Below, one piece after another: positions 9,497-32,018 of a stretch of 64,000 bases of DNA. The translations under genes were made by a program, and so were the position numbers. The notes under the pieces were generated by a model. It was not told the origin of the DNA and ran no database searches. It saw nothing but the letters and a program-made list of their open reading frames with translations. Position 1 is the first letter of the stretch. Each line of letters opens with the position of its first letter. Origin of the DNA: a virus (Duplodnaviria > Caudoviricetes); IMG/VR virus record IMGVR_UViG_3300005330_000014, positions 96,001-160,000 of that record, one strand, 5' to 3'.

Positions 9497-9501
9497 AACT
9501 T

Positions 9502-11482: not shown

Positions 11483-11490
11483 ATTATTAT

Positions 11491-11562: not shown

Positions 11563-11565
11563 AAT

Positions 11566-12468: not shown

Positions 12469-12476
12469 GAATTAGT

Positions 12477-12905: not shown

Positions 12906-12909
12906 AAAA

Positions 12910-13773
12910 TCAAGCCACTTTAATCACATGAATTTTGTCTTGCGGGTAAGGATAAGGTAATTCTTGGAATGAATTAGTAGTATAAACTTCATCAATTACT
13001 TCAAGTATATCTTTATAACCCTTGGAAAAAATCCCGTGGGTAACATACAAAATAATCCGCCCGGCGTTCTTTTTCTTTAATACTTTTGCTAGTTCGATAA
13101 ACGTCCTAGCCCCGTCAGCAATGTCGTCGAGAATTACAACTGTTTGATAATTCAAATCATCTACATAAACAATTGTTTCAATAATTTTACCCGTTTGTAA
13201 TTCTCTTAACTTATCCGCGCGGATAAAGTGATCATGCCCAAAATGCGCGGCAATATCATGGATTTTTTTATTAGCTCCAACATCAGGAGAAATTAAAAGA
13301 CACTGTTTATTAAGTAAAAGCTTATAAAGTTCGTTTTCACGGTCATAAATTAGATTTTTAAGAATATCCAACCGTTTTACTTCCTTAAGATTATTAATTA
13401 CTGCATTAGTAACTTCCGAGTGGCAATCAAAAGTAGTAACGGACTCAAAGTTTAGAAAGTTTAAGTAATCAGCGAATACTTTTAAACTAAGACTTTCCCC
13501 CGGATTATGAGCTTTATCCTGCCGCCCATAAGGAATATAAGGTAAAATAAGATGAATGGGGACTTTTTTAACTCTTAAAATTGCATCGCGCATTAAAGCC
13601 AATGTAAATAAATCATTAGAATTTTGAATCCGCGCGGTTATATAAACTCCATCACGCCAAAAATAAGTACTTTTAATTGATTCTTCGTTTAATTGAATAC
13701 CAATTTCGCCGCCGGGGAATAACCATTGTTTAAAACCTAACTCTAGTCTTCCATTGTTAGTAGTAATTTTCAT
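12910..13773 (-). CDS. prs: ribose-phosphate pyrophosphokinase-like protein (possibly Adps of NARP1)
   Basis: FPGGEI, PYIPYGRQDK, DCHS, ISPDVGA, VILDDIADGARTF, YVTHGIFS motifs; likely start ATG 13773. Confidence 0.9.
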   Translation of the reverse strand: MKITTNNGRLELGFKQWLFPGGEIGIQLNEESIKSTYFWRDGVYITARIQNSNDLFTLALMRDAILRVKKVPIHLILPYIPYGRQDKAHNPGESLSLKVFADYLNFLNFESVTTFDCHSEVTNAVINNLKEVKRLDILKNLIYDRENELYKLLLNKQCLLISPDVGANKKIHDIAAHFGHDHFIRADKLRELQTGKIIETIVYVDDLNYQTVVILDDIADGARTFIELAKVLKKKNAGRIILYVTHGIFSKGYKDILEVIDEVYTTNSFQELPYPYPQDKIHVIKVA

Positions 13774-13777
13774 ATTA

Positions 13778-13927
13778 TTAATTATTTTCTTTATCAATTA
13801 ACTTTTCAATTATATCCTGCTTTTTATTAGGAATAACTCTATTGGGCGGGATTTTTTGTCCACGCCCTTTGACCCGGCGGATACGTTTAATTGTATCTTT
13901 TCTTTTTTGTTTATCCGCGCGGTTCAT
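13778..13927 (-). CDS. small basic protein (49 aa, not in ORF track)
   Basis: MNRADKQKRKDTIKRIRRVKGRG...DKENN fills the gap exactly. Confidence 0.55.
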   Translation of the reverse strand: MNRADKQKRKDTIKRIRRVKGRGQKIPPNRVIPNKKQDIIEKLIDKENN

Positions 13928-13955: not shown

Positions 13956-14669
13956 TTAAGCAACCATTTGCTTTACTTCTTCCAAAAATCTTTGGCTCAA
14001 TGCGTTAGTTTTATAAATCGCTTCGGGGTGCCATTGAACAAAATTAGCTCTGTGGTTTTCATTTTTAATCCATTCAATAATTTTAGGCAGTTTAAGGTCT
14101 TCTCCTAATAAAGCTGTACCTACAATTTCAACCCCATTAGGTAAATGATGTAACTCGCGTGTTAACGGGCGCAAAATACCCATATGGTGCGCGCTATTTA
14201 CGAAATAGTCTTCATGATCGACTTCCACGTAATGGCAAAATTCAGCTTCATCATCTTCTAGTTTAATCCCGGCCCCGCTAGGAGAATGACAAACCGTACT
14301 ACCGCCATAATTAATATCAGTTAGTGTCAATTTAAGGAAGTGAGAACAATATAATTGGAAATTACGACAAACGCCCGCGATTGGTTTGCCCAATTCAATG
14401 AACTTATTCATTAAGTAAATTTCACGAATGTCACGCTTACGATCAAAATTGTCCATATTTTCACATTTTAATAGTGGGCTGCCGTAAGTAGCGGGAAAAA
14501 TATCTCGTCCACCGCCGCCAAAATAAATATCCGCCCGCTCTGCCCAATAATCTAAATTGGCAGTATCGTCGTGAGTTACATATACATAATTCCAACCGAA
14601 ATACTTTTCAAGCATTTCATGAATATGTTTAGTGAAAATAGATGGACCGGTAGTTAGAGCGAGAGGCAT
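13956..14669 (-). CDS. class I glutamine amidotransferase / peptidase C26 (PuuD-like)
   Basis: GGGRDI, GVCRNFQ (catalytic Cys), VNSAHH, QWHPE (His-x-Glu). Confidence 0.88.
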   Translation of the reverse strand: MPLALTTGPSIFTKHIHEMLEKYFGWNYVYVTHDDTANLDYWAERADIYFGGGGRDIFPATYGSPLLKCENMDNFDRKRDIREIYLMNKFIELGKPIAGVCRNFQLYCSHFLKLTLTDINYGGSTVCHSPSGAGIKLEDDEAEFCHYVEVDHEDYFVNSAHHMGILRPLTRELHHLPNGVEIVGTALLGEDLKLPKIIEWIKNENHRANFVQWHPEAIYKTNALSQRFLEEVKQMVA

Positions 14670-14752: not shown

Positions 14753-15649
14753 TCATCCAGCGTATTCGATTAATTTAGCATGTTTTTCGATAAAGTCAAG
14801 GTTTTCTTTCGAGTCTTCATTTTCTAAATTAAATTTCACACGAATTTTAGATACCTCGCACAAAAATAGAGCCTTATAATTATTGTTATAATCTTCTAAG
14901 TAGAAATATTGTGCGCCTAAGTCATGCGAAAAATTATCTCTGATTTGATCGACATTAATAGACCAAATTTGTTTGATTAATTCAATGTTATGGGTATAAA
15001 GTATTGAAGCTCGATATTTTTGGATAAATTTCTCTGGCGAGGTATATAATAGATTGTGATTATACACACTTCCTCTTTGTCGCTCACCCTCCCAGCGGTA
15101 CTTGACTAAGCCAGTAATAAAACTAGTCATCGCAGGGCTACTAATATAAATCGCGGGGCCGGTTAAGTGAAAAGCCGCCCATTCTTTAGTTTTTTCATCA
15201 CTTGTAATTATTGCGGTATATTCGGGGAATTCTTTAAAAATTAAATCTTCTGAGCAATCTAACAGAGATTTTAATTCATTAAGACGCGCGATTTCACTTT
15301 TAATTCTATCAATTTCAGAAGTTTTACAACAAACTAAAATATTAAGCTTAGAATAATCTGGCTGGAAATCCGTGCGCGTCTGAAATCCTTTTTCGTAATA
15401 ATAGTGAAAACTTTTAAATATTTCGGGATTATAAAAAATTGCGTTAAAAATGCCACGGCAAGAACGCGGCCAAAAATTATCAGTTACATTATTGATATCC
15501 AACCACGAAAACAATACTGGATTATAATTAGAATTCAAGGGAAATGTAGATGAACGACGCGCCGGATTATACTTAGTTATATTGTCTGAGTCAGAAATGT
15601 AAACACCTTTGAAAGTTGATTCAATTTTCTTTTTTAATTCTTCGTCCAT
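14753..15649 (-). CDS. hypothetical protein, possible distant member of the CRExF paralog family
   Basis: RSCRGIFN and SPAMTSFITGLVK loosely match the family motifs. Confidence 0.6.
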   Translation of the reverse strand: MDEELKKKIESTFKGVYISDSDNITKYNPARRSSTFPLNSNYNPVLFSWLDINNVTDNFWPRSCRGIFNAIFYNPEIFKSFHYYYEKGFQTRTDFQPDYSKLNILVCCKTSEIDRIKSEIARLNELKSLLDCSEDLIFKEFPEYTAIITSDEKTKEWAAFHLTGPAIYISSPAMTSFITGLVKYRWEGERQRGSVYNHNLLYTSPEKFIQKYRASILYTHNIELIKQIWSINVDQIRDNFSHDLGAQYFYLEDYNNNYKALFLCEVSKIRVKFNLENEDSKENLDFIEKHAKLIEYAG

Positions 15650-15751
15650 AATGATAAATGATTATATTAAGTTAATACTTAGTTATTTAGTTAAAGTTTT
15701 TGGAAGCCGCCGGATTCATTAGTAAAATAAACATCTTTGATGGAATAGTGA

Positions 15752-16147
15752 TTAGTTGAAATTGATTTCTTGGAACTCCCCATTTTTGTCTGTAGCAAAT
15801 ACTCTTTTAAAGTTTAACGAAGTAATAACACGGGCACAGAACTTGCATGGACTTGAAGTATTAATTTTTTCATTTCTATCTACTCTAACGACAGCCATTG
15901 TATAACCCGTGTAATCTTCTCTACGGCCACGCAATATTGCCATCAATTCAGCATGACAACCGCAATCTTCATAATAATTATATTCTATATTTTTAGGATG
16001 GCTTTGTTTCTTATTATGAGCCAGAGAAATCATTTTCCTCTTATTATAAATTGCGGCTACGTGGAAACAACGGCTATCCCCACGCATTTCGGGAGCTAAA
16101 GCTAATGCAATTTCTTTAAGTTTTTCAAGATTTTTAGGAGAATTCAT
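15752..16147 (-). CDS. zinc-dependent cytidine/dCMP deaminase-like protein
   Basis: HAE and SSPCKFC zinc motifs. Confidence 0.8.
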   Translation of the reverse strand: MNSPKNLEKLKEIALALAPEMRGDSRCFHVAAIYNKRKMISLAHNKKQSHPKNIEYNYYEDCGCHAELMAILRGRREDYTGYTMAVVRVDRNEKINTSSPCKFCARVITSLNFKRVFATDKNGEFQEINFN

Positions 16148-16184
16148 TTTTATTTAGTGTAAATATATAACAACACTACTATTT

Positions 16185-17231
16185 ATGATAATATATACCA
16201 AAGAATTAGCAAATCAACTTGTAGAGCTACAGAAAAATGTATCTTTTAAGGAAGCAAGAAAAATTTTAAATATCAGTTACTATCAAGCTAGGAAATTATT
16301 AATAAAATTTGGATTTAAAACCGTTCAAAAAAATAAGCCTTTAATCCCCATTCAAGAAAATTACTTTGAAATTATTGATACCGAAGATAAAGCTTATTTT
16401 TTGGGATTTATAGGGGCAGATGGGTGTATTAATGATAAACACGCTTTATCTATTCACTTACAAAAAGACGATCAGATTATTCTAAAGCAGTTTTTGCATT
16501 ATACAAATAGCCAACATACTATTAAATTCGGAAAAACTAAGAACACAACCAGTTCTTTTCCTGATTTTTTTGAGTGGGCTATGATTTATATCTCTAGGAA
16601 AAATTTCGTACAACATTTATTACAATTGAATATTACCCCTCGTAAGAGTCTCACATTAATTCCTCCGCCAGAAAATAGCATTCCCAATCATTTAATGCAT
16701 CACTTTATAAGAGGTTACTTCGATGGAGATGGCGGGGCTTATTTCAATAGTAACAGTAAAAACATTAAAGGCAAAACTTTATATCAATTTAATGGCTCTT
16801 TCACGGGAACCAAGGAAATGTTAACTTATATTGAGTCGTATTTACATCAACAAGAAATAAAAACTTCTTGGACCAAAAGAATGAAAGATAATTCAAACAA
16901 TTATACTTTATTGATACATGGTAATATACAGGGAACTAAACTATACGAATATATGTATCAAAATCATACAATATGTTTAGACCGTAAATTAATTCTATTT
17001 AAAAAATGTAAAGATATAGCAGAATCAGTTATTAACAATAGAACAAGTAAATATAGATTTATTACAAAATATCCTTCCATTAAGTCTCCTTGGTCTTATC
17101 AATTTAAAATTAATAAAAAGAAATATAGCGGATATGGAGCAACCGAAGAAGAATGCAAAAAGAATCTTAATGCAAAGTATTTGGAAATATCTGGAATAAA
17201 TTTAGGAGAGGGGCTGCGTAGCTTAATTTAA
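16185..17231 (+). mobile_element. free-standing LAGLIDADG homing endonuclease
   Basis: two motifs FLGFIGADG and FIRGYFDGDG; AP2-like C-terminus; only long plus-strand gene in the minus-strand arm. Confidence 0.9.
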
Positions 17232-17233
17232 TA

Positions 17234-17494
17234 CTAAGAGTATTCCGAATCAGCCAATATTTCTTCATTTAGAAACTCTTCAATTTCCGGCGCTTTTTCA
17301 TCTATATACTTAATTATATCATTCCCTTCACTATCGCTCTGAGGCTCAACTCCTAATCTAGTTTCGCGGGCATCTACTACTTGAACAGCGGAAAGTAATG
17401 CCAGCCATCGTGACAATACTTTTGGTTTCTTCAAGATTTCTCTAGTTAATGTTTCTGCTTGTTGTGGAGAATAAGGTTTTTGATGCTTGCCCAT
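17234..17494 (-). CDS. hypothetical protein
   Basis: 86-aa ORF, convergent with the endonuclease. Confidence 0.6.
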   Translation of the reverse strand: MGKHQKPYSPQQAETLTREILKKPKVLSRWLALLSAVQVVDARETRLGVEPQSDSEGNDIIKYIDEKAPEIEEFLNEEILADSEYS

Positions 17495-17590
17495 AATTAT
17501 AGATTTTTATGTTACTAAATGACCAATTAGTTAATTTATTAATTTAGTTAAGTTAAATCTTGGGATAGAACCAAGAAATTAGTTAATTTG

Positions 17591-17965
17591 TTAGACTAGT
17601 GTTTCGCCGTTTGCTTCCGCCGCAACGACAATACGGCCCAAAGCTACCTTTAAACCATTACGACGATTAAAGCAATCAGGTTTACCTTTTTTAGTAGTAG
17701 CTTTAGCAGTGGCTTTATATTCTTGTCCCGATTTACTAGTTACTTCAACTTGCGTAAATCCACCATGACTTAAAATAATCGGGCGGACTTCGGCAAGAGT
17801 AGGAGTTTTCAAAAATTCATTAAACTTACCATGTTTAATATGAACTAGTCTAGTAGTTAGAAGGCTCTTAACGTCCGCAGGGTTATGAGATACCCTTCGG
17901 AAGTGTGCGACTCTGACTTTATGACCAGCAGTTCTGAGTTGTTGTACTGTGATGTTATGTTTCAT
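17591..17965 (-). CDS. conserved hypothetical phage protein
   Basis: C-terminal DCFNRRNGLKVALGR resembles a common phage motif DxFxxxxGxxxAxxR. Confidence 0.65.
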   Translation of the reverse strand: MKHNITVQQLRTAGHKVRVAHFRRVSHNPADVKSLLTTRLVHIKHGKFNEFLKTPTLAEVRPIILSHGGFTQVEVTSKSGQEYKATAKATTKKGKPDCFNRRNGLKVALGRIVVAAEANGETLV

Positions 17966-18022
17966 ATACTTATTATACTTATTGGTTTATTGGTTAGTTA
18001 CTTGGTTACTTGTTTGTTTTGT

Positions 18023-18880
18023 TTATTCTAGTGATTTTTCAAAATCTTCAACTACATGAGCAAATTTATTGAGTATTTTAGTTTGCATTTTAGGTGTAAG
18101 CAAAAAGAACGCGGAACTAAATTGACGATATTCTAAAGTGGTAAATCCTTTAGGTTCCTGCGAGTGATATTTCATTCGATAATCTCCTTTGACTGCAAAT
18201 TTAGTAGTTCTTAATTCCTCTTTTTCAGAAATGCCAGCGGGTAGACTTTCCGGGAAATAAGTATCATAAACTTTATCTAATTCTTTGATCAATTCATTAG
18301 TTTTGTCTGGTGCATAAATCCCTTCAAATATTTTTGAGGCAATTCTGTTGTCGCAAAATTTAATATGAATATGAAAGCCAGCCGAACGGAAAGTTACTTC
18401 CTTATTAGGTTTTTCGTATTTATACTTTGAATCAGGGGTTCTTTTACCCGTATAAGCATTATAAGTAGGCTTTTTACTGGAATAAACATTGCCCGGATCA
18501 ATAAATGAATATTCAGATTTATCTACATAAGGAGTTAATAAAGTTTCATAACCATACAAAGTAGTAAGATAATTACGCACAATTTTCAACCAATGATTTA
18601 GAGTATCTACAGCTAATCCCGATTTCATCGAAGCATGGCAAGCTATTTCTTTGCCAACAATTTCAAAAGCAGTCCCGTCCGCAATAATATTGAAAAGGTT
18701 GTTAGATTGCAGTACAGGATTAATATCCAAATCCATTGGCGCAAAGGGATTACCCTTATTTCCAAGTAACAATTTATCTGTTTGTAGATAATTCGCAATC
18801 AATTTAGTAGCATTGAATATCTGCTTTGGCTTTGAATTTGCCAAAAAGAATTCAATTTCAAATCCGTAGTTTAAGCTCAT
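18023..18880 (-). CDS. phiEco32-like COOH.NH2 ligase type 2 (divergent)
   Basis: YGFEIEF, ADGTAFEI, RSAGFHIHI, GDYRMK, LEYRQFS motifs. Confidence 0.75.
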   Translation of the reverse strand: MSLNYGFEIEFFLANSKPKQIFNATKLIANYLQTDKLLLGNKGNPFAPMDLDINPVLQSNNLFNIIADGTAFEIVGKEIACHASMKSGLAVDTLNHWLKIVRNYLTTLYGYETLLTPYVDKSEYSFIDPGNVYSSKKPTYNAYTGKRTPDSKYKYEKPNKEVTFRSAGFHIHIKFCDNRIASKIFEGIYAPDKTNELIKELDKVYDTYFPESLPAGISEKEELRTTKFAVKGDYRMKYHSQEPKGFTTLEYRQFSSAFFLLTPKMQTKILNKFAHVVEDFEKSLE

Positions 18881-18902
18881 AATATGAATTAGTTAATTTG
18901 TT

Positions 18903-19520
18903 TTATTGGACAGTTTCTGTATCTACAGCAGTTTCAGGCGGCTTAATTAGCCATTTAGTTAAAGATAAAGTGTCGGTGGGTTTCTTTTTGAAATAATTAA
19001 CAAAACCTCCAGCCTCCCATCCGCCCACGCCTAACGATTTAACTGTTTGCACAGTATAACCATCCATAAAATGTAGGATTGCCGGAATTACTTGCCGCGC
19101 CAAATCATACGCCTCCAAAGCCGCTACAAAGTTATCATTTGCATTGGCATAATAAACAGCCGCCGCGCGGAGGAATAAAGTAAACATACCCCGACGAACG
19201 GCACTACTCGCCCAAAATGGGGAAATTTCCAAAATAATACAATTTACAACATTCGTATTATAAATAACAATTCTTTCCTCTTCAGGAATATTTAATTTAA
19301 TTTCGCGGTTTCTGAAAAACTTATCGATTTTTTCGATATCAATCCCAGTTTTATTAAATCCAACAAATCTGGTATTTTTATTGAAAGAATAACCAAAACT
19401 TTCCCGGCAAGTAAAACATGCTCCGCCCTGATTTGTTTTAATAGAATAAGTAAAGAAAGCTCCTTGATTATAACCGTATGGAGCCACTGATTTTAAATGT
19501 AACGTTTCTTTGGAAATCAT
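18903..19520 (-). CDS. uncharacterised paralog family member (CRExF family)
   Basis: TCRESF, ISPFW, MFTLFLRAA, FMDGYT. Confidence 0.75.
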   Translation of the reverse strand: MISKETLHLKSVAPYGYNQGAFFTYSIKTNQGGACFTCRESFGYSFNKNTRFVGFNKTGIDIEKIDKFFRNREIKLNIPEEERIVIYNTNVVNCIILEISPFWASSAVRRGMFTLFLRAAAVYYANANDNFVAALEAYDLARQVIPAILHFMDGYTVQTVKSLGVGGWEAGGFVNYFKKKPTDTLSLTKWLIKPPETAVDTETVQ

Positions 19521-19589
19521 AAAATTATAAAAACTATAACGATTAACTACTTTGTTTAATTATTTTTATTTATTTAATCTTAACTATAA

Positions 19590-20255
19590 TTATTGATCAG
19601 TCGTTTTGCTTAAAAAAGCAGAGAAAATCTCCGGTAATCTATCACGGTTAGCACAATTAATTATTACATTACTAAATCTAGAAACAAACCTTGCTCCAGT
19701 TATCCCCATAGTATTTGGATCAAACGCCATTTTAGTAGGATGGATATTACCTTCCAAAAAGAACATGATTGCCGGGACTACTTGGGCGGCTAACGGATAA
19801 GCTTGTAACGCTTCCTCAAAATTTCCGCCGTGAGCCGTTTTTGGGTAGAAAATCGCCGCGCATCTCAAAAATAACGTAAATATTGCTTGAGTAATTATAT
19901 TCTGCATCCAGAACGGATCAATCTCCAAAACAATAAAATTAGGAATATCTGTTTTATAAATAACAATTTCTTGTATTTCAATTCCCGCTTTTCTCAATTT
20001 CGCCTCGCGGCGCATAAAAAACTGATTAACCTTTTTAATTCCTTCTTCTCCTAAATTTTTACTGTGCCATGCAATTCGTTTGATTTCTGGCTTTAAAAAT
20101 GAAGCAAAATTCTCGCGACAAGTGCATAAATGAATAATTCGACTATTATCATCCAGCATCATAAAATACCCGCCACTATAAGTATCTCCTTCCCGATTGA
20201 AGGTTTGGGCATAGTAACCATCATTAACTACTGGAATTACTTGGTCAGTTATCAT
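19590..20255 (-). CDS. uncharacterised paralog family member (CRExF family)
   Basis: TCRENF, IDPFW, IFTLFLRCA, FLEG; clear tandem paralog of 18903..19520. Confidence 0.75.
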   Translation of the reverse strand: MITDQVIPVVNDGYYAQTFNREGDTYSGGYFMMLDDNSRIIHLCTCRENFASFLKPEIKRIAWHSKNLGEEGIKKVNQFFMRREAKLRKAGIEIQEIVIYKTDIPNFIVLEIDPFWMQNIITQAIFTLFLRCAAIFYPKTAHGGNFEEALQAYPLAAQVVPAIMFFLEGNIHPTKMAFDPNTMGITGARFVSRFSNVIINCANRDRLPEIFSAFLSKTTDQ

Positions 20256-20448
20256 AATTCAATTTTAATTTAATGTTTGAGTATTTTTATTTTCTTGTTC
20301 TTAAGTTCTATGTTTCTACAACGTCTATAAATCTTATCAAGTCTTATAATTTCTGTACATGCAATGGTCGGTTTTCCATAATAAGGCCGCGCGATGAATC
20401 TGTCAAGAACTTTTTTCAAAAAGTTTTACTCTAGAAAATCGGGCGGAT

Positions 20449-20925
20449 TTACTTTAATTTGTCCACGCGGATTAATTCGGGATTTTCAAAAATATTCCCG
20501 ACAATCTCTAATCCCATATATTCAACTACCTCTTTCAATATTTCTTTAATTGATTGTTCGGGGTAAATCCCTGTTGCGTCATGTATTTTTTGTTTATAAC
20601 CAATAGCCGCGCGGCCAAGCATCAAACCAAATCCGCAAAAATACTTTTCTCCAGCTCCAAACTCACAACTTACATCGTCAAATTGAACAGGTGTTTTACC
20701 ATTTAAACCAACACCACATTCAGCATTACATTTAAGTAAATCGCCCTCATAAATCTCTTTATTGTTTTTATCTAGTAATCCAGTGAATTGTTGAATTACG
20801 AATTCTTCGTGTTGCTGACCGTTTGTGGTTAGTTGATATAACTCTTGGAAATCCGCAGGAAAGTACATTAACGAATTACCTTCATAATTATCAAAACACC
20901 AAACTCTAAATTTAATTGTTTTCAT
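20449..20925 (-). CDS. YopX family protein
   Basis: IKFRVW, QQFTGLLDKNNKEIYEGD, EIVGNIFENPEL. Confidence 0.85.
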   Translation of the reverse strand: MKTIKFRVWCFDNYEGNSLMYFPADFQELYQLTTNGQQHEEFVIQQFTGLLDKNNKEIYEGDLLKCNAECGVGLNGKTPVQFDDVSCEFGAGEKYFCGFGLMLGRAAIGYKQKIHDATGIYPEQSIKEILKEVVEYMGLEIVGNIFENPELIRVDKLK

Positions 20926-20937
20926 AGTATTTAAAGA

Positions 20938-21336
20938 TTAAAGATTTGGATACTTAGTATTACCCGATTTGACGGTATTAAATGAATCTTGAATATAACA
21001 AACTAAGTAAGAGTCATAATCTAATTTATGAAGAGTTGCAAGAGTGTTGAAATAGTAACTGACTAATTTCTCTTTTTTAAAGGCACAAGATTTAAAGTTG
21101 CGCCCGCGAATTGCCGCCGGAATTTCTTTATAATCATTATAAACTAGTAAAGATAAATAAAACTTGTCATGGTCGCTAATACTTAACTTACTAATTTTCC
21201 TTTTATAGTCTAAAAACTTAAGTAATTGTTTTTTAACTCCGTCCCAATTTGCGCCCGAATTAGCTTTTAAAACAATTAAAGCCGCCGGAATCCGGGGACG
21301 TTCCTGATTCTTATTTTCAATTTTTTCAGCTTTCAT
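20938..21336 (-). CDS. hypothetical protein
   Basis: 132-aa ORF. Confidence 0.6.
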   Translation of the reverse strand: MKAEKIENKNQERPRIPAALIVLKANSGANWDGVKKQLLKFLDYKRKISKLSISDHDKFYLSLLVYNDYKEIPAAIRGRNFKSCAFKKEKLVSYYFNTLATLHKLDYDSYLVCYIQDSFNTVKSGNTKYPNL

Positions 21337-22141
21337 ATTTTTCTCTATATTTTTTCAAAAATTCATTAACTAATGCTTCAGGGAATTCCTGACGTTTAGC
21401 CGCCGCGAGCATCTTATCTAAACTATCATAATCATTACCCGGGGATGAACGCCATGATCGTGCGGACTCAATTCTTTTACCTTCCGTTTCGTCTCTTACC
21501 CCGATCCAGCCATGACCATCTTTATTAAAGGATATTTCATAATAAATTCGATTTACAGCTTTTTCTCCGCCCTTATAAGAATAAGGCGACCATCTAGCTA
21601 AAGTGAATTTTCCATTAGGCCACCGGATATTCTTGCCTGCAAGCTCGCATTCAATATTATTAATATCTTCTAATTTAGCCCAAAATCTTAAAGTTTTCTT
21701 ATTTTTACCTTCACCCTTGACCCATTTAAAAGTAACTGAAGAAAAATCGTTCGCGCCCTTTCTAATATATATTCTATCTACTTCTAGTAGTGTTCCAGCG
21801 GGAATTGTAACTGAATAAAATTTGCCACGTTCTTTTGATTCCAGTTCTCTTTGTTGGGCAGCAAATTTCTGATAAGCTTCCCAATTAGAATCTTGAACAG
21901 TTGTTTCATGGATAATTGTACAACCATTGCTAAATGGCTTAGATTTTCTAATCGTTTTGATTTTTGAATAAGCTCCATTATATTTAATTCTAAGTTTATC
22001 GGCTTTTTCTTTATATTGTTTATATCCATCGGGAAGTAATTCGTCCAACAGTGTTTCATTTCTGGACTCTTTATACAAAGGAAACTTCCACGGTTTACTT
22101 AATTGAATTTGAGTAGTTAGTTCGGGGATATAAAGTTTCAT
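21326..22141 (-). CDS. conserved hypothetical phage protein
   Basis: LYIPEL..ESRN..VTIPAGTLLEVDRIYIRKG..RFWAKL pattern; likely start ATG 22141. Confidence 0.7.
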   Translation of the reverse strand: MKLYIPELTTQIQLSKPWKFPLYKESRNETLLDELLPDGYKQYKEKADKLRIKYNGAYSKIKTIRKSKPFSNGCTIIHETTVQDSNWEAYQKFAAQQRELESKERGKFYSVTIPAGTLLEVDRIYIRKGANDFSSVTFKWVKGEGKNKKTLRFWAKLEDINNIECELAGKNIRWPNGKFTLARWSPYSYKGGEKAVNRIYYEISFNKDGHGWIGVRDETEGKRIESARSWRSSPGNDYDSLDKMLAAAKRQEFPEALVNEFLKKYREKYES

Positions 22142-22151
22142 AAGGTTTTTA

Positions 22152-22424
22152 TTATTTTTGTTTATCTTTAAATGCTTGACGCGCTTTGTCATACTCTTCT
22201 TTAGTTGCTAATTCGACAGAATGTTCATGGAAATTACTTTCTACTGCATTACCCTCATAAGAATACCACATACTACCTAAACCAACATATCCTTGGGTTT
22301 TAGGATAACCATTTAATGGTTGAGAGATTTCTCTGATTTGACAAAAATGCACAGGGCAGCATCCATAAGGAATAACTTTAATATAATCCCCGATTTTGAA
22401 TTTGCTTTCTATAGTTTTGTTCAT
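22152..22424 (-). CDS. hypothetical protein
   Basis: KFKIGDYIKV start suggests an SH3/KOW-like fold; likely start ATG 22424. Confidence 0.55.
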   Translation of the reverse strand: MNKTIESKFKIGDYIKVIPYGCCPVHFCQIREISQPLNGYPKTQGYVGLGSMWYSYEGNAVESNFHEHSVELATKEEYDKARQAFKDKQK

Positions 22425-22624
22425 AGGTAATTTAATTCTTGATAGCAAATTAATTAGTTAAACGAAAAGCCGCCGGGTATGGATATGATTGATAAGAGAG
22501 GGTCAACCATATTACCACGGCCCGGCGGATACTGTCAAGATTTATTTTTTAGAATTTTTCGATTTCTTTTTGGGATTTATTTTACTCGATTAAATCAACG
22601 AACTTCACTCATCTATCTTATTTG

Positions 22625-23038
22625 CTAGCGTTTATTTTTAAATTCCTCAAACCATTTGTCTAGCTCAAGGATGCGTGGATAGACATACTCCAATTCAAAA
22701 CTAATCAATTTAGATTTTTTATCTCTAACGTCTTTTCTGATAGTTAAATATTCTAAATCTAAATCCATGCCCGCGAAATTAATATAATTAAGAGTTATAG
22801 GTGCGGCCATTAATAACTTTTGATATTCTAATGTGTTCCAATTTTTGGAATCTTGGTTGTAAGGCTTTAAAGTATTTTCTTGATATTTCTGATGGGCGGC
22901 ATTTTGTTTGCGGGCGTTATCCCAAAGCTCGAATAAATCAATTTCGGCAGCTTCCTTGGATTCGTATTCAAACGGCAGGGTATCCGTAGCTCCCCAAGTA
23001 TATTTATCACCTATTTCATATAAAAGGACTAGTTTCAT
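22625..23038 (-). CDS. hypothetical protein
   Basis: 137-aa ORF. Confidence 0.6.
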   Translation of the reverse strand: MKLVLLYEIGDKYTWGATDTLPFEYESKEAAEIDLFELWDNARKQNAAHQKYQENTLKPYNQDSKNWNTLEYQKLLMAAPITLNYINFAGMDLDLEYLTIRKDVRDKKSKLISFELEYVYPRILELDKWFEEFKNKR

Positions 23039-23068
23039 ATTAATTTTTAATTTGTGACAGAAATTCTA

Positions 23069-23389
23069 TTAATCTTTCAGTTTTTTTATTTTGTCGCTCG
23101 CAAACATATCTGTCAAAGGGTGATTATGTGTTCTATCTGATTTGTCTAAAATAATCATATTATTGTAAACATAATTTCTCATTTGGGCGTATTCTCTATC
23201 TGCGTCTCGATAAAAATATACTAAAGTTTTGCCGGTTGTACGACTCACGCTGGTAGATAAAATCTTAAAACCGCGCTCATTATTGTCCAGTAATAATTGA
23301 TAACTTCTAGGGCCGACTCCGATATCCCGCAAATCTTCTAGAGATAATGAAGGTTTAATCCTAAATTTTAATCCGGGTTTTAGGTTCAT
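23069..23389 (-). CDS. hypothetical protein with HNHPLTDMF motif
   Basis: motif at 23102-23128. Confidence 0.7.
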   Translation of the reverse strand: MNLKPGLKFRIKPSLSLEDLRDIGVGPRSYQLLLDNNERGFKILSTSVSRTTGKTLVYFYRDADREYAQMRNYVYNNMIILDKSDRTHNHPLTDMFASDKIKKLKD

Positions 23390-23397
23390 AAATAGGT

Positions 23398-23703
23398 TTA
23401 TAAAGATTTAGATTTTATGTAACTTAATTCATATCTAGGATGACCCACCGAGTAACGATTAAAACAACTGTAATTTGTGCCCGCATAGAACACAAACTGT
23501 AACCATATAATTTTGCCATTAGTTATTTTTGTAGGCAAGAAAGCAAATCTATAAAATCCCTGCGCGGCTTTATTTTCATCATTTAATCCGGTTTTACGAA
23601 AATGCTCAATTTGTTCACTTAATTTCCGAAAAACAGGAACAGCATTAAAATCAAACAATCGTAAAAACTGCGCGCGGCTTTTAATTTTAGATTGCTTTTT
23701 CAT
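23398..23703 (-). CDS. hypothetical protein
   Basis: 101-aa ORF. Confidence 0.55.
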   Translation of the reverse strand: MKKQSKIKSRAQFLRLFDFNAVPVFRKLSEQIEHFRKTGLNDENKAAQGFYRFAFLPTKITNGKIIWLQFVFYAGTNYSCFNRYSVGHPRYELSYIKSKSL

Positions 23704-23714
23704 ATATTTTAATT

Positions 23715-24449
23715 TTATTTAGCTATTTCAAAGGGTGCTGATTCTTCTATTTTCCAAAGATCGTGAACGGGACAAATTGTAGTAGAAGAATAATTTGACG
23801 AATATAAAAAATTAGTATTTGCCAGTTTCTGATTGAATTCTTCTTTGGTGATATTTCGCGCTCCATTAGCTTTAAATGTAATCATATGAGCAGAAGCCGC
23901 CGACCCAAAATCTTTAGAATAGCCTTGTATTAATTTATGAGCAGTTTGTAAAGCAATAAACTTATCAATTTTTTCTTCTTGTAGTAAGTTAACCTGCAAT
24001 AACTCAAAATAATTTTCGGGGACCAATAGAACGCCGGGCTCATACAAGGCGTGGATTAATTGAATAGTGGAGGTTAGAAGAAGTTTATATTTAAAATATT
24101 TTAACTCAATAGTAAAATAAGCATTATTTTTGTCGAAATGAACAGAGCATGGAAATCCCAATTCTGCGATTTCAGCAATCCACTTACTGATAGATTCTTC
24201 GCTATATGGAATTTTACTTAAGGGATGGCTTATTTCAATTTTTGAAGTTGTAAGATCAATCGGTCTTGATGTAAGAACATAAAAACAAATTTGTCCACTT
24301 GACTTATCCAATATAACTTCACCGTTTTCGTTAAATGTCTTATAAAAGACCGTAGACGTTATATTTTTTAATGACTCTAAAATTAGATAATTATAATTAC
24401 GCGGGGTTTCTACTGGACTAGGGGTTGGAGTGGAAATTGTCATATTCAT
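23715..24449 (-). CDS. hypothetical protein
   Basis: 244-aa ORF within the amidoligase region. Confidence 0.65.
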   Translation of the reverse strand: MNMTISTPTPSPVETPRNYNYLILESLKNITSTVFYKTFNENGEVILDKSSGQICFYVLTSRPIDLTTSKIEISHPLSKIPYSEESISKWIAEIAELGFPCSVHFDKNNAYFTIELKYFKYKLLLTSTIQLIHALYEPGVLLVPENYFELLQVNLLQEEKIDKFIALQTAHKLIQGYSKDFGSAASAHMITFKANGARNITKEEFNQKLANTNFLYSSNYSSTTICPVHDLWKIEESAPFEIAK

Positions 24450-24490
24450 ACCTCTTTTTACCTTATATTTATCTATAATAATTTTTAAGT

Positions 24491-25138
24491 TTAAGTTTCT
24501 TTATATAAATTCAACTTAATTTCGTCTTCTGTTTTGTTTCCAAACTGGGTAAATGGACCAGAATGCATTTCTGATTGTAACGTTCTAACGCTGGCTTCTG
24601 AAAATTTAGTATATCCATCTAAAAATAGTCTCATAAAATTCATCAACTGCGGACCATACTTTGATTTATTCATTGTTTCAAATATATCCCCGCCAACCAC
24701 ATGGTTTCTACCCCATCTTAATAAAATACCAAAAAGGGCACGTTTCATTTTTCCGTCTTCCGAATCTACCCACCACGGAGAAACACGCACCGCACTAATA
24801 GTAGTTCTAGTGGTCAAGTATAGTTTCGTTCGAGGATGAATATCCAAGAGCGTTTCAATTTGATTGATAAAATCAGCTATATTGGCCGTTAGATTCCCGG
24901 CATGAGCATATAATAGGGAATGCATTTTTTCGCCCCAAACGTTGCCGTGCTCTTCTAAACAATGAGCCCACGTATCATATTTATTAGCTAGCGTTTCATC
25001 GCTGCTTTTCCGGCTAGTACATTCACCTTTCAATCTATTAATTTTTGCTAAAGCAATAAATCCATCATTTGCGTCAGAGGTTTCATCGGGATTGACATCG
25101 TATCCCCAATTTTTTACTAATTTTAATTTTGCTGTCAT
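24491..25138 (-). CDS. uncharacterised paralog family member (CRExF family)
   Basis: HCLEEH, VSPWW, LFGILLR, FLDGYT; likely start ATG 25138. Confidence 0.7.
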   Translation of the reverse strand: MTAKLKLVKNWGYDVNPDETSDANDGFIALAKINRLKGECTSRKSSDETLANKYDTWAHCLEEHGNVWGEKMHSLLYAHAGNLTANIADFINQIETLLDIHPRTKLYLTTRTTISAVRVSPWWVDSEDGKMKRALFGILLRWGRNHVVGGDIFETMNKSKYGPQLMNFMRLFLDGYTKFSEASVRTLQSEMHSGPFTQFGNKTEDEIKLNLYKET

Positions 25139-25172
25139 TTTATTCTTATTTAGTTTAGGTTTTAGTTTAAGT

Positions 25173-26117
25173 TTAACTTCCTTCCAATAGATCGATAACC
25201 TTTTGCTTATATTCAAACGTGCCTTTTTCGCAAATAGAAACTTCTATACTTTTTCTAATCATTTTCCCGTCTCCTTCAACCAGACGTTTCATTAGTTCGG
25301 GTCGAAACTGATAACTATCCACGGCGGCATTATAATAATAAGAGGCAATTTTAAAATTGGGTTTAAATAACAAATTATGTAACGCTACGATTCCTCCGCC
25401 GTGCGAAGTAGTAGATAAACCATTGACTGGCATTTCTTCTTTAGTGTAATTATCTTCAATCGGATTCCTAAAGAATGTTTTATAATTATATTTTTTAAAA
25501 AGATTAATCATTCTAAGTAAAGCCGCCGAATATTCTTTATCACAAGATTTATCTACAGGTAAGTCGCCAGATATGACTTTCTTTAGAGTTTCTTGATAAT
25601 TCGTCCCAGCTTGGTGGGCCGGAGACACTCTAATTAGATTTAGATATAAGGCCAACATAGGCAATGCGCGCAGCCACTCGTTAGACCCAACTAAAATAAA
25701 ATATTGATTTTGACTAGTATCTTTTGTCGTGTTTTTGATTAAAAACTCCTGAGAAAGAGGTATCGCCAAGTCTTGTTCAATTTGATTTAAGAAATCTTTG
25801 ATTAAAGATACTAATATATTAATTTCAATATTCTGGTGTTTGTTAGGTATAACAATTAATAGCCTTAAATATTTTGGAATCTTACCGCCGCCCTTAAAAG
25901 CGTCCCAAACATTATCGTTAAAATAATCCTTACACCCTGTAATACCATTATATAATATACGATTATTTTCTGAAAGCCAGCAGAAAGTGATATGTCCTTG
26001 ATCGTAATGGGTAGGAACTTCTATTTTAATTAAACACGGATCAACATCGGAATTGTCTATCTCCGTGATAGGCGCGGCGGCTTCATATTTATATTTAATA
26101 GTTTTAGTTTGTAACAT
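25173..26117 (-). CDS. uncharacterised paralog family member (divergent)
   Basis: GCKDYFND, FLNQIEQDL, SNEW, LYLNLIR. Confidence 0.7.
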   Translation of the reverse strand: MLQTKTIKYKYEAAAPITEIDNSDVDPCLIKIEVPTHYDQGHITFCWLSENNRILYNGITGCKDYFNDNVWDAFKGGGKIPKYLRLLIVIPNKHQNIEINILVSLIKDFLNQIEQDLAIPLSQEFLIKNTTKDTSQNQYFILVGSNEWLRALPMLALYLNLIRVSPAHQAGTNYQETLKKVISGDLPVDKSCDKEYSAALLRMINLFKKYNYKTFFRNPIEDNYTKEEMPVNGLSTTSHGGGIVALHNLLFKPNFKIASYYYNAAVDSYQFRPELMKRLVEGDGKMIRKSIEVSICEKGTFEYKQKVIDLLEGS

Positions 26118-26182
26118 ATTTTACTGATTAAAAAACTTACTTATAAGCTATTATTAATTCTTATTATTTATTGCTTATTTAT

Positions 26183-26902
26183 TTATTTTGTTAGATAGAC
26201 CGAAGGCTTTTCCCTTTTAGGTTTGGAATAAACATAATCCCCAATTTCTCTATCATAACGTCCAGTTTCAGCCCCTTCTCCATTAAAAAATGAAACCCAC
26301 CCGTAAAAATTACGAATATATTGTTTTTTTAATTTTGTATACCCTGATAAAAATAATTCAACCGCCTCTCTAGTCATAGCAAAGTATGGTTCGGCAAATA
26401 AAGCGATATTAATAGGGTCTTTAAGATTACTGTTATATCTAGTCCCGGCACGTAATAAGATTGTCAAAAAATTAAATCTTAATTTGTCATTCCACCATTT
26501 AGAAAGAATAACTAAACAGTACTTTGGGCGCACAGGTTTAAATTGTAACTTCTGGCTACTTGTTAGCTTCAGTTTTTTCTCAATTAGATCAATAAATTTA
26601 ATTAGGCCCGAATAACTATCTCCATGAGAGAAAAGAAATTGGGTTTTAATTACCCCGGAATAATCACTGATAACATCATGAAATGATTCTCTACAAGACT
26701 CGACACAATCAATATTCACACAATTATATTGAGTATACTGATCGGGAACAGATAAAATACCAAAACTACCTTTATAATGTAAATCATCTTCCCCACATTC
26801 GGGATCAACGACAACGATTGGACGATTTTTGTCAAAAACAATTTTGTCGATAATTTTAAATTTAGATTTAGATTGTTTGGATTTTGTAGATTTAGTTTTC
26901 AT
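26183..26902 (-). CDS. uncharacterised paralog family member (CRExF family)
   Basis: SCRESFHD, FIDLIEKKL, LSKWW, FLTILLRA, FLSGYT, GWVSFF. Confidence 0.75.
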   Translation of the reverse strand: MKTKSTKSKQSKSKFKIIDKIVFDKNRPIVVVDPECGEDDLHYKGSFGILSVPDQYTQYNCVNIDCVESCRESFHDVISDYSGVIKTQFLFSHGDSYSGLIKFIDLIEKKLKLTSSQKLQFKPVRPKYCLVILSKWWNDKLRFNFLTILLRAGTRYNSNLKDPINIALFAEPYFAMTREAVELFLSGYTKLKKQYIRNFYGWVSFFNGEGAETGRYDREIGDYVYSKPKREKPSVYLTK

Positions 26903-26925: not shown

Positions 26926-27240
26926 TTATTTAGGGATAACCAAAGTAAACATTGTTGTTAAGGGGTGATTATGGTCTTTTAAAGTTTTTTGTTTAGTTTT
27001 GGCTGGCTGGACATGTTGCGAAAGTATAGTAATATAATGATTGTCATAATAAAAATCAAGGTATCCGCCGACTCTGCTTATATAATCAATACGGAATACT
27101 TCTCCGCTCTCAAATATTTCTTTTGCTAGCTCTAGATTTAAACCATTGTATTCAGCTAAATTTTCAATGATTTCTTCCGGCAGGCGATTAATGGTAATGA
27201 AATCCCCGCGTTCTAATTTTTGAAATTCAGCTAATTCCAT
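26926..27240 (-). CDS. hypothetical protein with HNHPLTTMF motif
   Basis: motif at 26947-26973. Confidence 0.7.
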   Translation of the reverse strand: MELAEFQKLERGDFITINRLPEEIIENLAEYNGLNLELAKEIFESGEVFRIDYISRVGGYLDFYYDNHYITILSQHVQPAKTKQKTLKDHNHPLTTMFTLVIPK

Positions 27241-27281: not shown

Positions 27282-27689
27282 TTAACCTTTACACCAGTCG
27301 CCCGAGACAATTTTTTTATTTAAAATATGGGCAGGTAAGTCTCTTTTATTGTAAGAATAGATAGTCGCGGACACTTCTTGGTTTAATTCGGCAGAAAAGA
27401 TAGTAATTTCTTGCTTATTGTATCCCGCGCCCGCCTCCATTGAATCAATCGATTGCAAGGCTATAGGGTCAACTTCATGTAACTCGACTACTACTTGACC
27501 TTCTCCGGCGGCAATACACGGATAAAAACCAAGATTGTATAATTCAAATCCGTCCACTTTTAAGGTTTCAATATATTTTTGACCATTAAATCGTTGGAAG
27601 TTATATGTTTTATCACGGTTATTTGGGTCGCTAGGATTCCCGCGCCTCAAAGTGCCGTAAGACAAAATATAGTTAGTTTGTTTTTTCAT
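27282..27689 (-). CDS. gamma-glutamylcyclotransferase (AIG2/GGACT-like)
   Basis: LSYGTLRRG, LYNLGFYP, VVVELHEV, IDSMEAGAGY. Confidence 0.88.
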   Translation of the reverse strand: MKKQTNYILSYGTLRRGNPSDPNNRDKTYNFQRFNGQKYIETLKVDGFELYNLGFYPCIAAGEGQVVVELHEVDPIALQSIDSMEAGAGYNKQEITIFSAELNQEVSATIYSYNKRDLPAHILNKKIVSGDWCKG

Positions 27690-28282: not shown

Positions 28283-28945
28283 TTAAACTGCTATGATAGC
28301 ACGATCAAAGCAATAATCCGTTAAGCTCCCTTCGATTAGTTTATTTACTAAATTTTGGCAATAAATCACCGCCGGATCATCTAATAACATGCATTCAGGA
28401 TGCGTCTGGATTCCCAACATATTGGTTTTTTTATAATAAACAATTTCTGGCTCAACGGGAGTATCCATTTCTTCCTGATCCCCGCCTTCGTGGTAAGGAG
28501 ATAAATTCTCTGCCCATCCAATAATTTTATAGTCATCAGGTGGTAAATTAAACGGCCATTGTAAATTATGGTGCGTTGAGATTAAATCAAATTCTTGACC
28601 ATCAAAAGTTTTAATATAATGATAAACTGGGTGCCTCATATGTTGCACTAATTTACCGCCAGATAGCACGCTTGCCCCTTGTGAGCTTCGACAAACGCCA
28701 ACAAATGGAATACCCTTTTTAATTACTTGATTAAACAATTCAAATTCATAAATATCCCGAGAAGGATTAGTAGAAACAAAAGGATGTTCTTGTTCTCCAT
28801 AATATTTAGGGGACCAATCTGATCCTCCGGTGCCTAAAACCAATTCCGCTTCATCAATATTATTCGTTAATTCAAAGCCCAATGGAAGAATCCATTTAGC
28901 ATCATGCGCGCCGCCATTAACAACGTATAATTTTCGTTTTTTCAT
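28283..28945 (-). CDS. class I glutamine amidotransferase / peptidase C26
   Basis: GTGGSDW, GVCRSSQ, STHH, QTHPE. Confidence 0.88.
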   Translation of the reverse strand: MKKRKLYVVNGGAHDAKWILPLGFELTNNIDEAELVLGTGGSDWSPKYYGEQEHPFVSTNPSRDIYEFELFNQVIKKGIPFVGVCRSSQGASVLSGGKLVQHMRHPVYHYIKTFDGQEFDLISTHHNLQWPFNLPPDDYKIIGWAENLSPYHEGGDQEEMDTPVEPEIVYYKKTNMLGIQTHPECMLLDDPAVIYCQNLVNKLIEGSLTDYCFDRAIIAV

Positions 28946-29409: not shown

Positions 29410-30372
29410 CTAACTAACCAAATGTTTAGAGGAATTAGCTAATCCCCATTCAGAATAAACATCTAAATCTTTGACATCTCTTAGCTGATTTAAGCGAATA
29501 GTTAAGTGTTTTGGTAAATTCAAGGCAGCAACGATTTCTTCTGCAAGTCCCTTGTTGTTTTCAATAACGGCAGAACGCGCCATCTCTTTTTTAATTTTGA
29601 AAATAGATTTGTAATCATCATTAAAATAACGATTTACCGCTTCGGTAGCTAAATCATATATTAACGCAACCAATTTAGGAGAACTAATCCAGTAGTTAGA
29701 TAATAGTCTATATTCCAGTCCGGGATATTCAGGCTTAGGACGATGCGCCCCTAGATTACGACCATACAGAGTTTTGCGTTGCAATGAAGTAGTATCATTG
29801 TCCACCAAAACAAAAGGCACCGCCACAAAATAATCTAATAACTTAACTAAAGTAATGACACTATCAAAATCATTTAACGGCAAGCTTTTCTTTCTGTCTT
29901 GGTCGGCACGGGCAATTGCGAAATGTCCGCCCGCCGAGCGACGAGCACCACTAAAATCAGGCGGGATAATTTGGCATACGTCCCATGCATCATACTCAGG
30001 ATTACAACCAATTTTATTGGCTTCTGGGTGTTCCATGAAGCGTGGATCAAATTCATGACTAGCTTTAATTTTAATCTTAAACCGGCCTTCACTCTCTTTG
30101 ATTAAATAATCATTAATTAAACTTAATGACGAGCCAATACTTTTAATAAAATCTTCTTTAGAGGTTGCGGGGCGAACCGTAAATTCTCCCATTGTATTAT
30201 CATAATAAAGATTAGTATGTTCGTCCAACCGAATTGGATCATACTTGTCCACTTTAAGTACGTCAATTGCGCTCACAACATCTCCGCTTGAAACATCTTC
30301 AATAAAAAATTCAGGATCGGCCCCAAAAGTTAATGCGGTTGTTTTATTTACTAATTCATTTTTGCTTTTCAT
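29410..30372 (-). CDS. phiEco32-like COOH.NH2 ligase type 2
   Basis: TFGADPEFF, DNTMGEF, GCNPEYDAW, RSAGGH, LYG..GAHRPK, GLEYRLLSNYW. Confidence 0.9.
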   Translation of the reverse strand: MKSKNELVNKTTALTFGADPEFFIEDVSSGDVVSAIDVLKVDKYDPIRLDEHTNLYYDNTMGEFTVRPATSKEDFIKSIGSSLSLINDYLIKESEGRFKIKIKASHEFDPRFMEHPEANKIGCNPEYDAWDVCQIIPPDFSGARRSAGGHFAIARADQDRKKSLPLNDFDSVITLVKLLDYFVAVPFVLVDNDTTSLQRKTLYGRNLGAHRPKPEYPGLEYRLLSNYWISSPKLVALIYDLATEAVNRYFNDDYKSIFKIKKEMARSAVIENNKGLAEEIVAALNLPKHLTIRLNQLRDVKDLDVYSEWGLANSSKHLVS

Positions 30373-30857: not shown

Positions 30858-32018
30858 TTATTCCTCCCAAGAATTAACTACTTCACTGTCATCAATTTCT
30901 AACATTTGGACTCGACGATTTCTGCCGCCAACTTGGACAATTCCTGAAACTACAAATTTCTTACCCATTTTAGTTACCCTTAAATTGGAAACATCAGGAA
31001 ATTCAAACGTTCGATGATTATTAGCATTATTATTAACTGGGGCAGCAACAGCCCGAGGTTGGACAGGAGGCGGAACGGCAACGCGAACAGGTTCAGGTGC
31101 CGGTGCTGGAGCGGCGCGAACTACTGGCGGCGGAGCTACGGGAGCAGGAGGGGCAGGAGCTACGCGGGCAGCTTGCGGGGCGACGACAGCGGCAGGAATA
31201 GCCGGAACAGGAGTAATAGCCGGGACCACTCTATTATTTAATACATCAGTAATTACTCTTGTATAATTTCTTAATGTGGTAGACTCTAGGTTATCCCCCA
31301 AACTAGAACAACTATTCAACTCTAGAACAACGCAATTCCGATTAGTTTCATTGTAACAAATATCTACGCTAGCTAGGTCTAACCCTAAAGCATTCATTGC
31401 TTTAATTGATTCAACTTTAACGCAATCGGGAAGCGTTACTCCTTCACGAGCGAAAATCCATTGACCATGATTTCTAATTTGATAATTAACTTCGGTGCCT
31501 TCTGGAAGGTCTGAGCGAACTTTCTTTTGAATATAATCGAAAATCTTAACTCCATCGCGGTCACGAATCATATGCACACGATATTCATGTTTCTTAGGAA
31601 AATACTTAACATATAATTGAGTGCGAGGACTTAATTGCGCCTCAGTTTCAGCGATAACTAATCCGGCGGCTGAATGTCCATTTAATATTTCCCGGCAAGC
31701 TACCTTGCTCCCCTCGCGAATCCATCGTGCAGCCACCGCGCGATCTTCTGTAAATTCAGGAATTGAAACATTAGCTTCTCTTAATTTAAGAAATGTTTTC
31801 TTTTTGCAAACAGCAATAGCAACGCTACGGGGGTTATTCAACCATCTAACGTTAGCATTATTCCAGACAGGCTGACCAGAAAAACCTAAATTAACAACTA
31901 AATGATTCGGATTATAAGTATAATCACCGTCAGAACGAACACGGGGACAATTTAATGATTGAGCGAGTAAACGGCCCGCTGTAGATGTTGGCTTGTATGC
32001 AATAACGCGTGGATTCAT
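30858..32018 (-). CDS. ATP-grasp (RimK-like) ligase with Pro/Ala-rich linker and small C-terminal domain
   Basis: CKKKTF, GHSAAG loop, HEYRVH, IRN, ALGLDLASVDI, VLELNS; low-complexity linker at 31038-31229. Confidence 0.85.
   Translation of the reverse strand: MNPRVIAYKPTSTAGRLLAQSLNCPRVRSDGDYTYNPNHLVVNLGFSGQPVWNNANVRWLNNPRSVAIAVCKKKTFLKLREANVSIPEFTEDRAVAARWIREGSKVACREILNGHSAAGLVIAETEAQLSPRTQLYVKYFPKKHEYRVHMIRDRDGVKIFDYIQKKVRSDLPEGTEVNYQIRNHGQWIFAREGVTLPDCVKVESIKAMNALGLDLASVDICYNETNRNCVVLELNSCSSLGDNLESTTLRNYTRVITDVLNNRVVPAITPVPAIPAAVVAPQAARVAPAPPAPVAPPPVVRAAPAPAPEPVRVAVPPPVQPRAVAAPVNNNANNHRTFEFPDVSNLRVTKMGKKFVVSGIVQVGGRNRRVQMLEIDDSEVVNSWEE

Follow-up and report, generated by a model that had tools for sequence, protein, structure and literature searches.

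A large unnamed family of phage proteins with a possible ligase-like fold, in several copies at the amidoligase locus of an uncultured phage

The stretch analysed here, referred to as the window, is 64,000 nucleotides long and corresponds to bases 96001-160000 of a 208,233-bp virus record of an uncultured phage, which IMG/VR classes as linear and for which CheckV gives a completeness of about 95%. The G+C content is about 34%, and the minus strand holds nearly all window genes from about 39.5 kb down to 0.4 kb. A megablast search with the region gave no match. The initial annotation, made from the letters of the DNA, had singled out six open reading frames (ORFs) in which it saw copies of one unassigned protein family among amide ligase genes. 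All six are present on the minus strand and are named below by their first coordinate. Two tandem neighbours, 18903..19520 (205 amino acids, aa) and 19590..20255 (221 aa), belong to subfamily A and match the hidden Markov model (HMM) of the family at E values of 4e-64 and 6.5e-49. Subfamily B1 is represented by 24491..25216 (E 2e-39), which has an orthologue of 38% identity (P0008) and is followed directly by gene 23715, and subfamily B2 by 26183..26902 (239 aa; E 2.3e-32). The true start of 24491 is most likely the ATG at 25138 and not the TTG at 25216; this gives 215 aa, in agreement with the database gene call P0002. The set is completed by a divergent long form of 314 aa (25173..26117; E 2.9e-5) and by a probable, very distant member of 298 aa (14753..15649).

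The motifs that had been read across 18903, 19590, 24491 and 26183 are true alignment columns, which take the form C-R/L/K-E/D-x-F, F..E..L, W, L-R and F-L-x-G-Y/N-T. When all copies were compared with each other by BLASTP, 18903 and 19590 were 38% identical (E 4.7e-28), and matches were also obtained for 18903 with 26183 (27%, E 1e-5) and with 24491 (21%, E 9e-5), and for 24491 with 26183 (27%, E 1.6e-6) and with 25173 (25%, E 0.004). Given these E values, which range from 5e-28 to 9e-5 among the four core proteins, significant similarity is by no means limited to 18903 and 19590. An HMM built from the four, searched against the 606 ORFs of at least 50 aa in the 208-kb genome, added 25173 (E 6e-4) and nothing else. 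The family HMM, which was built from 94 diverse homologues (alignment A2; residues are numbered as in 18903), matched exactly five copies in the same ORF set, at E values of 4e-64 to 2.9e-5.

The initial annotation had described 25173 and 14753 as looser matches. For 25173 this was borne out directly by the family HMM, and 14753 (E 0.42, no direct match) is connected to the family by iterated profiles only. Its orthologue in another phage, L003:9506-10210 (E 4e-26), is matched by the HMM of the long forms (E 1.5e-5), and in a search of 1414 sequences a two-sequence profile made from this pair reached the long form L010:9121-9990 with an E value of 2.8e-4. A jackhmmer search started from 14753 retrieved family members only and none of the about 1000 unrelated phage ORFs in the database. 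As the alignment shows, the invariant Cys described below is retained in the SCRGIF of 14753, but the positions of the invariant Trp and Arg hold Tyr and Lys; the other five window copies carry all three invariant residues. By sequence comparison, we thus count five clear copies in the genome and one very distant copy (14753). Genes 23715 and 21326 were tried as seventh copies and rejected, as jackhmmer from each retrieved its own orthologues only.

A profile search of 1.84 billion cluster representatives (clusters at 50% identity) yielded 1264 homologous proteins at E ≤ 1e-3 and 759 at E ≤ 1e-10. Most members are 185-220 aa long (about 195 aa is typical), the long form has about 290-315 aa and a few members have about 400 aa. 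The Cys, Trp and Arg that had been noted as near-invariant in the window are Cys38, Trp103 and Arg118, and they are invariant across the 94 diverse members, in which the mean column identity is 20%. Tyr15, Gly20, Phe22, Arg39, Phe68, Glu73, Leu76, Phe151 and Gly154 are conserved in at least 90% of these sequences, and Glu40, Arg110, Thr114 and Tyr138 are strongly conserved as well. The statement that no family could be assigned also stands: members gave no match in Pfam (cut-off 25 bits), PHROGs or NCBIfam, and an HMM search of the PDB sequences gave none either. No match was found by tblastn of 18903, 25173 and L010_9121 against 50,697 deposited phage genomes. Pattern-based locus searches (alignment A4) in IMG/VR, JGI metagenomes and GTDB genomes gave 0 confirmed relatives, and scans that used 18903 or P0008 as the only query were likewise without a match. 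The majority of members were found in assemblies from Logan, ENA and JGI, and their only label in the source databases is "hypothetical protein". On these sequence data we regard them as a large, abundant, unnamed and unannotated phage family, which appears to be confined to uncultured phages as far as the libraries searched show.

The relationships among the copies were examined in a quick maximum-likelihood tree with Shimodaira-Hasegawa approximate likelihood ratio test (SH-aLRT) support only and with many open forks. In this tree, 18903 and 19590 fall into clade A (support 99), 24491 into clade B1 with copies from the phage loci L001, L015, L011 and L012, and 26183 into clade B2 with both halves of a fused protein and with P0067, a member adjacent to a ligase. 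The long form 25173 groups with other long forms, and 14753 and its orthologue sit on a long branch. The window copies are 20-38% identical and fall into four or more old subfamilies, all of which have orthologues in other phages. They are thus an old, co-retained set and not the product of a recent duplication burst, and the proposal that they were diversified by duplication in an arms race is therefore weakened. At 20-38% identity the synonymous sites of the paralogues are saturated, which makes the ratio of nonsynonymous to synonymous substitutions unusable.

Arrays of several copies recur in other phages. One A copy and one B1 copy are present in both L011 and L012, and a long form and a B2 copy in L013; a 225-kb phage (G001) carries a fused pair together with a long form and a form of 349 aa. 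Two full family domains in one chain are found in P0168 and its relatives. L015 contains an array of a member, a long form, another member and a fragment; its long-form gene (L015:4381-5119) consists of two overlapping ORFs of 139 aa and 125 aa, both matched by the long-form HMM, so that the gene may be frameshifted or a pseudogene, or the assembly may be faulty here. The retention of old subfamilies side by side, together with the natural two-domain fusions, suggests a division of labour or hetero-oligomers.

These data also bear on the possibility that the proteins are non-enzymatic binders for host takeover or anti-defence, in which Cys, Trp and Arg would be structural and each paralogue would recognise a different host target. 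Such a role would suit a phage-restricted, multi-copy and highly divergent family that lies in an early region rich in small genes without known function, and whose copy number varies among relatives (three clustered copies in the window, one in L001). An invariant polar set (C-R-E, E, W, R-R, R) in 94 sequences with only 20% mean column identity is, however, more typical of an active or ligand site, and the subfamilies are old and orthologous across phages, with no rapid turnover. We therefore consider binders of this kind improbable.

Two COOH-NH2 ligases are encoded on the minus strand of the window. One is a glutamine-synthetase-like (GS-like) amidoligase with the motifs G-F-E-I-E, H-I-H and E-Y-R (18023..18880; phrog_3815, E 8.8e-6), which also shows the invariant columns of ligase alignment A3, and the other is of the phiEco32-like type 2 (29410..30372; PF14395, E 1.1e-11; phrog_3815, E 1.3e-43). 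In A3, which contains the window ligases and their homologues, G6, E10, H170, R235, E250 and R252 are invariant and E8 and H172 are conserved to at least 90%. We take the invariant residues to be the G-x-E-x-E, H-x-H and E-x-R signatures of the COOH-NH2 ligase class. The conserved columns of the family hold no equivalent of these signatures, and its first core strand, G20-x-F22-F-T-Y, has no conserved acidic residue. PF14395 matched none of the six copies, and a genome-wide search with it matches only 29410. Canonical ligation with adenosine triphosphate (ATP) and Mg is unlikely for the family because the metal and ATP residues of the ligases are missing from it. A new polar site appears to have been fixed instead, consisting of Cys38-Arg39-Glu40, Glu73, Trp103, Arg110 and Arg118.

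Structure prediction nevertheless points towards the ligases. An AlphaFold2 model of 18903 on the 94-row alignment reached a predicted local distance difference test score (pLDDT) of 92.9 and a predicted template modelling score (pTM) of 0.89; a model of 25173 on a separate alignment reached a pLDDT of 70, with 85-97 in the core. Both models rank GS-like carboxylate-amine ligases first. The ranking is stronger for 25173, for which 12 of the 14 top rows are carboxylate-amine ligases and the first unrelated row aligns only 91 residues. With both models, rows of carboxylate-amine ligases align 140-188 residues and unrelated rows 65-100. The GS-like fold includes PafA/Dop, gamma-glutamylcysteine ligase, YbdK and the phage COOH-NH2 ligases. 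Two members of about 20% identity thus independently suggest, with moderate strength, that the family has this fold. In the models, most of the conserved polar residues are found on helices: C-R-E on a short one that follows strand 2, and E73 as well as W103, R110 and R118 on two others. The likeness to PafA/Dop is structural only as far as the models go, as no Pfam, NCBIfam or PDB-sequence match placed the proteins in the Pup_ligase family. The question raised by the initial annotation, whether the family is a ligase-derived domain, thus receives a positive, if moderate, answer from the models.

Other structure searches gave little. Foldseek against PDB, BFVD, AFDB clusters and Swiss-Prot found no convincing match and no solved or viral structure; the AFDB clusters contained one uncharacterised look-alike (template modelling score, TM, 0.76) and an entry labelled LAGLIDADG (TM 0.52). 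Searches of the ESM Atlas, both by shape and by features, returned noise. The resemblance to GS-like ligases could be convergent or an artefact of the aligner, with the family having a fold of its own, and this would cut across all other readings. We judge it unlikely, while giving it real weight: two separately built models of members that are about 20% identical put the same superfamily first, the ligase rows align over far more residues than the unrelated ones, and the genes are embedded among true ligases of the GS-like fold.

The stop codon of 18903 lies 22 bp upstream of the start of ligase 18023. The same part of the minus strand encodes a RimK-like ATP-grasp peptide ligase (30858..32018; phrog_2599, E 1.5e-51; weak RimK/MptN matches in NCBIfam), two proteins resembling Peptidase_C26 and class-I glutamine amidotransferases (GATases) (13956..14669; PF07722, E 4.6e-15; and 28283..28945; PF07722, E 6e-15) and an AIG2-like gamma-glutamyl cyclotransferase, GGACT (27282..27689; PF06094, E 2.4e-16). 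This gene set matches the phage amidoligase set reportedly described in 2009 by Iyer, Abhiman, Burroughs and Aravind (Mol Biosyst 5:1636), who are said to have predicted that such modules (COOH-NH2 ligase, ATP-grasp, GATase, GGCT) write peptide tags. A second expanded family is present in the same module as the ligases, namely three paralogous GATase_4-like proteins of the N-terminal nucleophile (Ntn) type at 32057-33133, 33469-34308 and 36629-37492 on the minus strand (mutual E values 4e-23 to 4e-5; weak PF13230 matches).

Gene 23715 (23715..24449, minus strand) encodes an unrelated 244-aa protein without a named family. Its orthologues at L001:10672-11379, L011:3490-4206 and L012:1653-2435 each stand directly after a B1 member, as 23715 does in the window; another one, L016:257-958, lies near the start of its contig. 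This family of about 240 aa has no match in Pfam, PHROGs or NCBIfam. Gene 23715 and subfamily B1 form a conserved gene pair, which makes 23715 a candidate partner.

Some further genes of the window deserve mention. Two small proteins interleaved with the family (23069-23389 and 26926-27240, minus strand) share a C-terminal HNHPLT(D/T)MF peptide, which according to BLAST pairs is common to other scattered small proteins of the genome. A LAGLIDADG-type homing endonuclease is encoded on the opposite strand at 16185-17231 (+), between a deoxycytidine monophosphate (dCMP) deaminase-like gene at 15752 and ligase 18023. It has a paralogue elsewhere in the genome (E 6e-9), and endonucleases like it are present in relatives at different positions. 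The genome also has five scattered YopX-domain paralogues, at 20449-20925 (-) and 61380-61820 (+) of the window and at three further sites, and YopX copies also occur near family members in L015 and L003. The minus-strand genes at 9980-13797 encode a NAMPT/NAPRTase-like protein, a protein with a nucleoside 2-deoxyribosyltransferase-like domain and a phosphoribosyl pyrophosphate (PRPP) synthetase-like protein, and probably constitute a block for nicotinamide adenine dinucleotide (NAD) salvage and nucleotide metabolism. A similar block, with NADAR, stands beside a family member in L011.

In three phages, members of three different subfamilies were found directly upstream of PF14395 ligases. The first case is 18903 (subfamily A) with ligase 18023 in the window. 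The second is L010:9121-9990, the long form of the 225-kb phage, which comes from IMG/VR and is unrelated, and in the third, L013, a long form is followed by P0067 (subfamily B2) and then by the ligase, with an Amidoligase_2 gene 5 kb further on. Members in L001, L011, L012 and on the contigs of P0010 and P0019 have a Peptidase_C26 gene no more than 10 kb away. In L009 (at 7434-9565), from the 225-kb phage G001, a Peptidase_C26 gene is directly followed by the 349-aa member, which has a C-terminal extension of about 125 aa. On its other side stands a 3-dehydroquinate-synthase-like gene, and an NAD-dependent epimerase is next door; these surroundings hint at a small-molecule pathway.

RNA ligase genes (PF09414) occur at L012:3565-4986, L016:4929-6239 and L003:4287-5597, either immediately or 1.7-2.4 kb upstream of members; the one in L012 also matches PHA02142, and the RNA ligase of the window is far off, at 3002-4075. 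Neighbours of this type raise the possibility of an independent Cys-dependent enzyme or binder for RNA, nucleotides or NAD-related metabolites, which would share with the amidoligases only an early "auxiliary" region. The PHA02142/RNA_ligase gene of L012 stands immediately upstream of a member and the RNA ligase genes of L003 and L016 stand 2.4 kb upstream, RtcB and a SpoU methylase are encoded near P0067, and the neighbours seen in the window and L011 include NAMPT, PRPP synthetase, NADAR and dCMP deaminase. The fused form, moreover, lies beside DnaB, DNA polymerase A and RNase H, and a conserved Arg-rich helix with a Trp would suit a phosphate or base ligand. On the other hand, neither fold nor sequence matched a known nucleic-acid or nucleotide enzyme, and three immediate adjacencies to PF14395 ligases, involving three different subfamilies, would have to be explained. 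We consider such a role doubtful.

The reading that we tentatively favour, at a little under even chances, is that these proteins are derivatives of a ligase fold with a new Cys/Arg/Glu/Trp site, which work in or beside the phage peptide-ligase module. The family would be a minimised and strongly diverged derivative of the GS-like carboxylate-amine ligase fold which has lost the metal- and ATP-binding residues (G-x-E-x-E, H-x-H, E-x-R) and fixed the new polar set instead. Its proteins may form dimers or hetero-oligomers and would act in or next to the peptide-ligation and gamma-glutamyl module of COOH-NH2 ligases, ATP-grasp ligase, Peptidase_C26 and GGACT. They could be Cys38-dependent enzymes that take what the neighbouring ligases produce through an acyl-transfer or amidase step, by analogy to Dop in relation to PafA. 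A second option is that they have no catalytic activity and serve as ligase-like subunits, which would present the substrate or target to the true ligases. At present the family is best described as a novel and strongly diverged form of a known fold class, inside a known but functionally unsolved phage module.

A number of observations weigh against this assignment. Comparison by hhalign of the family and of its long forms with the ligases showed no similarity (probability 0.1-0.2), and the searches of PDB sequences and Pfam produced no sequence or profile match. The tandem-fused form, among its replication genes DnaB, DNA polymerase A and RNase H, has no ligase within 10 kb, and 11 kb of L015 contain four copies but no ligase. 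In L003 and L016, an 18903-like member is followed by a 17591-like gene, an order that is kept without a ligase. The amidoligase cluster of Pseudomonas phage UFV-P2 has no family member according to the family, long-form and iterated HMMs (best E 0.16); its ORF19 and ORF20 were considered as long-form members and rejected for want of an HMM match. Finally, the contexts come mostly from related AT-rich soil phages and are not independent, so that the co-location with Peptidase_C26 may be inherited gene order. Co-occurrence with ligases thus held for the members of three subfamilies upstream of PF14395 ligases and failed for other members: because many members have no ligase within about 10 kb and the UFV-P2 cluster has no family member, a coupling that is real but facultative seems to us a plausible, still tentative, description. 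On balance, the interpretation given in the initial annotation, with these proteins as partners of the ligases diversified by duplication, is supported in part.

A more far-reaching version would make the family a new catalytic branch of the GS-like fold in which the invariant Cys has replaced ATP-Mg chemistry. Its members would then be phage-specific thiol-dependent transferases or amidases, assembled as homo- or heterodimers of several subfamilies. They would edit, transfer or remove the peptide or gamma-glutamyl tags that the COOH-NH2 and ATP-grasp ligases next to them attach. Host or phage proteins would be the targets, and the system would be a viral equivalent of PafA and Dop as writer and eraser. 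We regard this as a long shot.

To our knowledge, phage amidoligase modules are still without known substrates or products. A family of more than 1000 clusters with a fixed Cys/Arg/Glu/Trp site on a probable ligase-like scaffold and with repeated ligase adjacency offers a concrete handle on these modules, and its members are candidate partners or acceptor-handling subunits for the ligases. For Pfam and PHROGs it would also be a new family, one that represents large uncultured phages of soil, an abundant group. New chemistry would be added to the GS-like fold if the Cys is catalytic.

Among known systems, the amidoligase cluster of the LUZ24-like phage UFV-P2 (PF14395 ligase, Amidoligase_2, GATase, ATP-grasp, AIG2; PMC3890496) has the same enzyme set as the window and two proteins of about 285 aa without known function just upstream of its ligase; unlike in the window, none of its proteins matches the family HMMs. 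YbdK and gamma-glutamylcysteine ligase (GCS2, GshA; PDB 1tt4, 1v4g, 3nzt, 3ln7) are larger, have metal-binding glutamates and show no profile match to the family. The Pup ligase PafA and the depupylase/deamidase Dop of actinobacteria (PDB 4bjr, 9cku) have 450-500 aa, a C-terminal domain and a canonical Glu/Arg ATP-Mg site, whereas the family has 200-300 aa, shares no sequence similarity with them and, in the libraries searched, occurs in phages only. A further comparison is with the phiEco32-like COOH.NH2 ligases of type 2 (PF14395). The family shows no HMM or profile similarity to them and, in place of the ligase motifs, has the invariant Cys, Trp and Arg; but both are phage-encoded, of similar small size (the long form especially) and predicted to have a GS-like fold, and in three phages their genes are adjacent; the module that they share also contains ATP-grasp, GATase/Peptidase_C26 and AIG2/GGACT genes.

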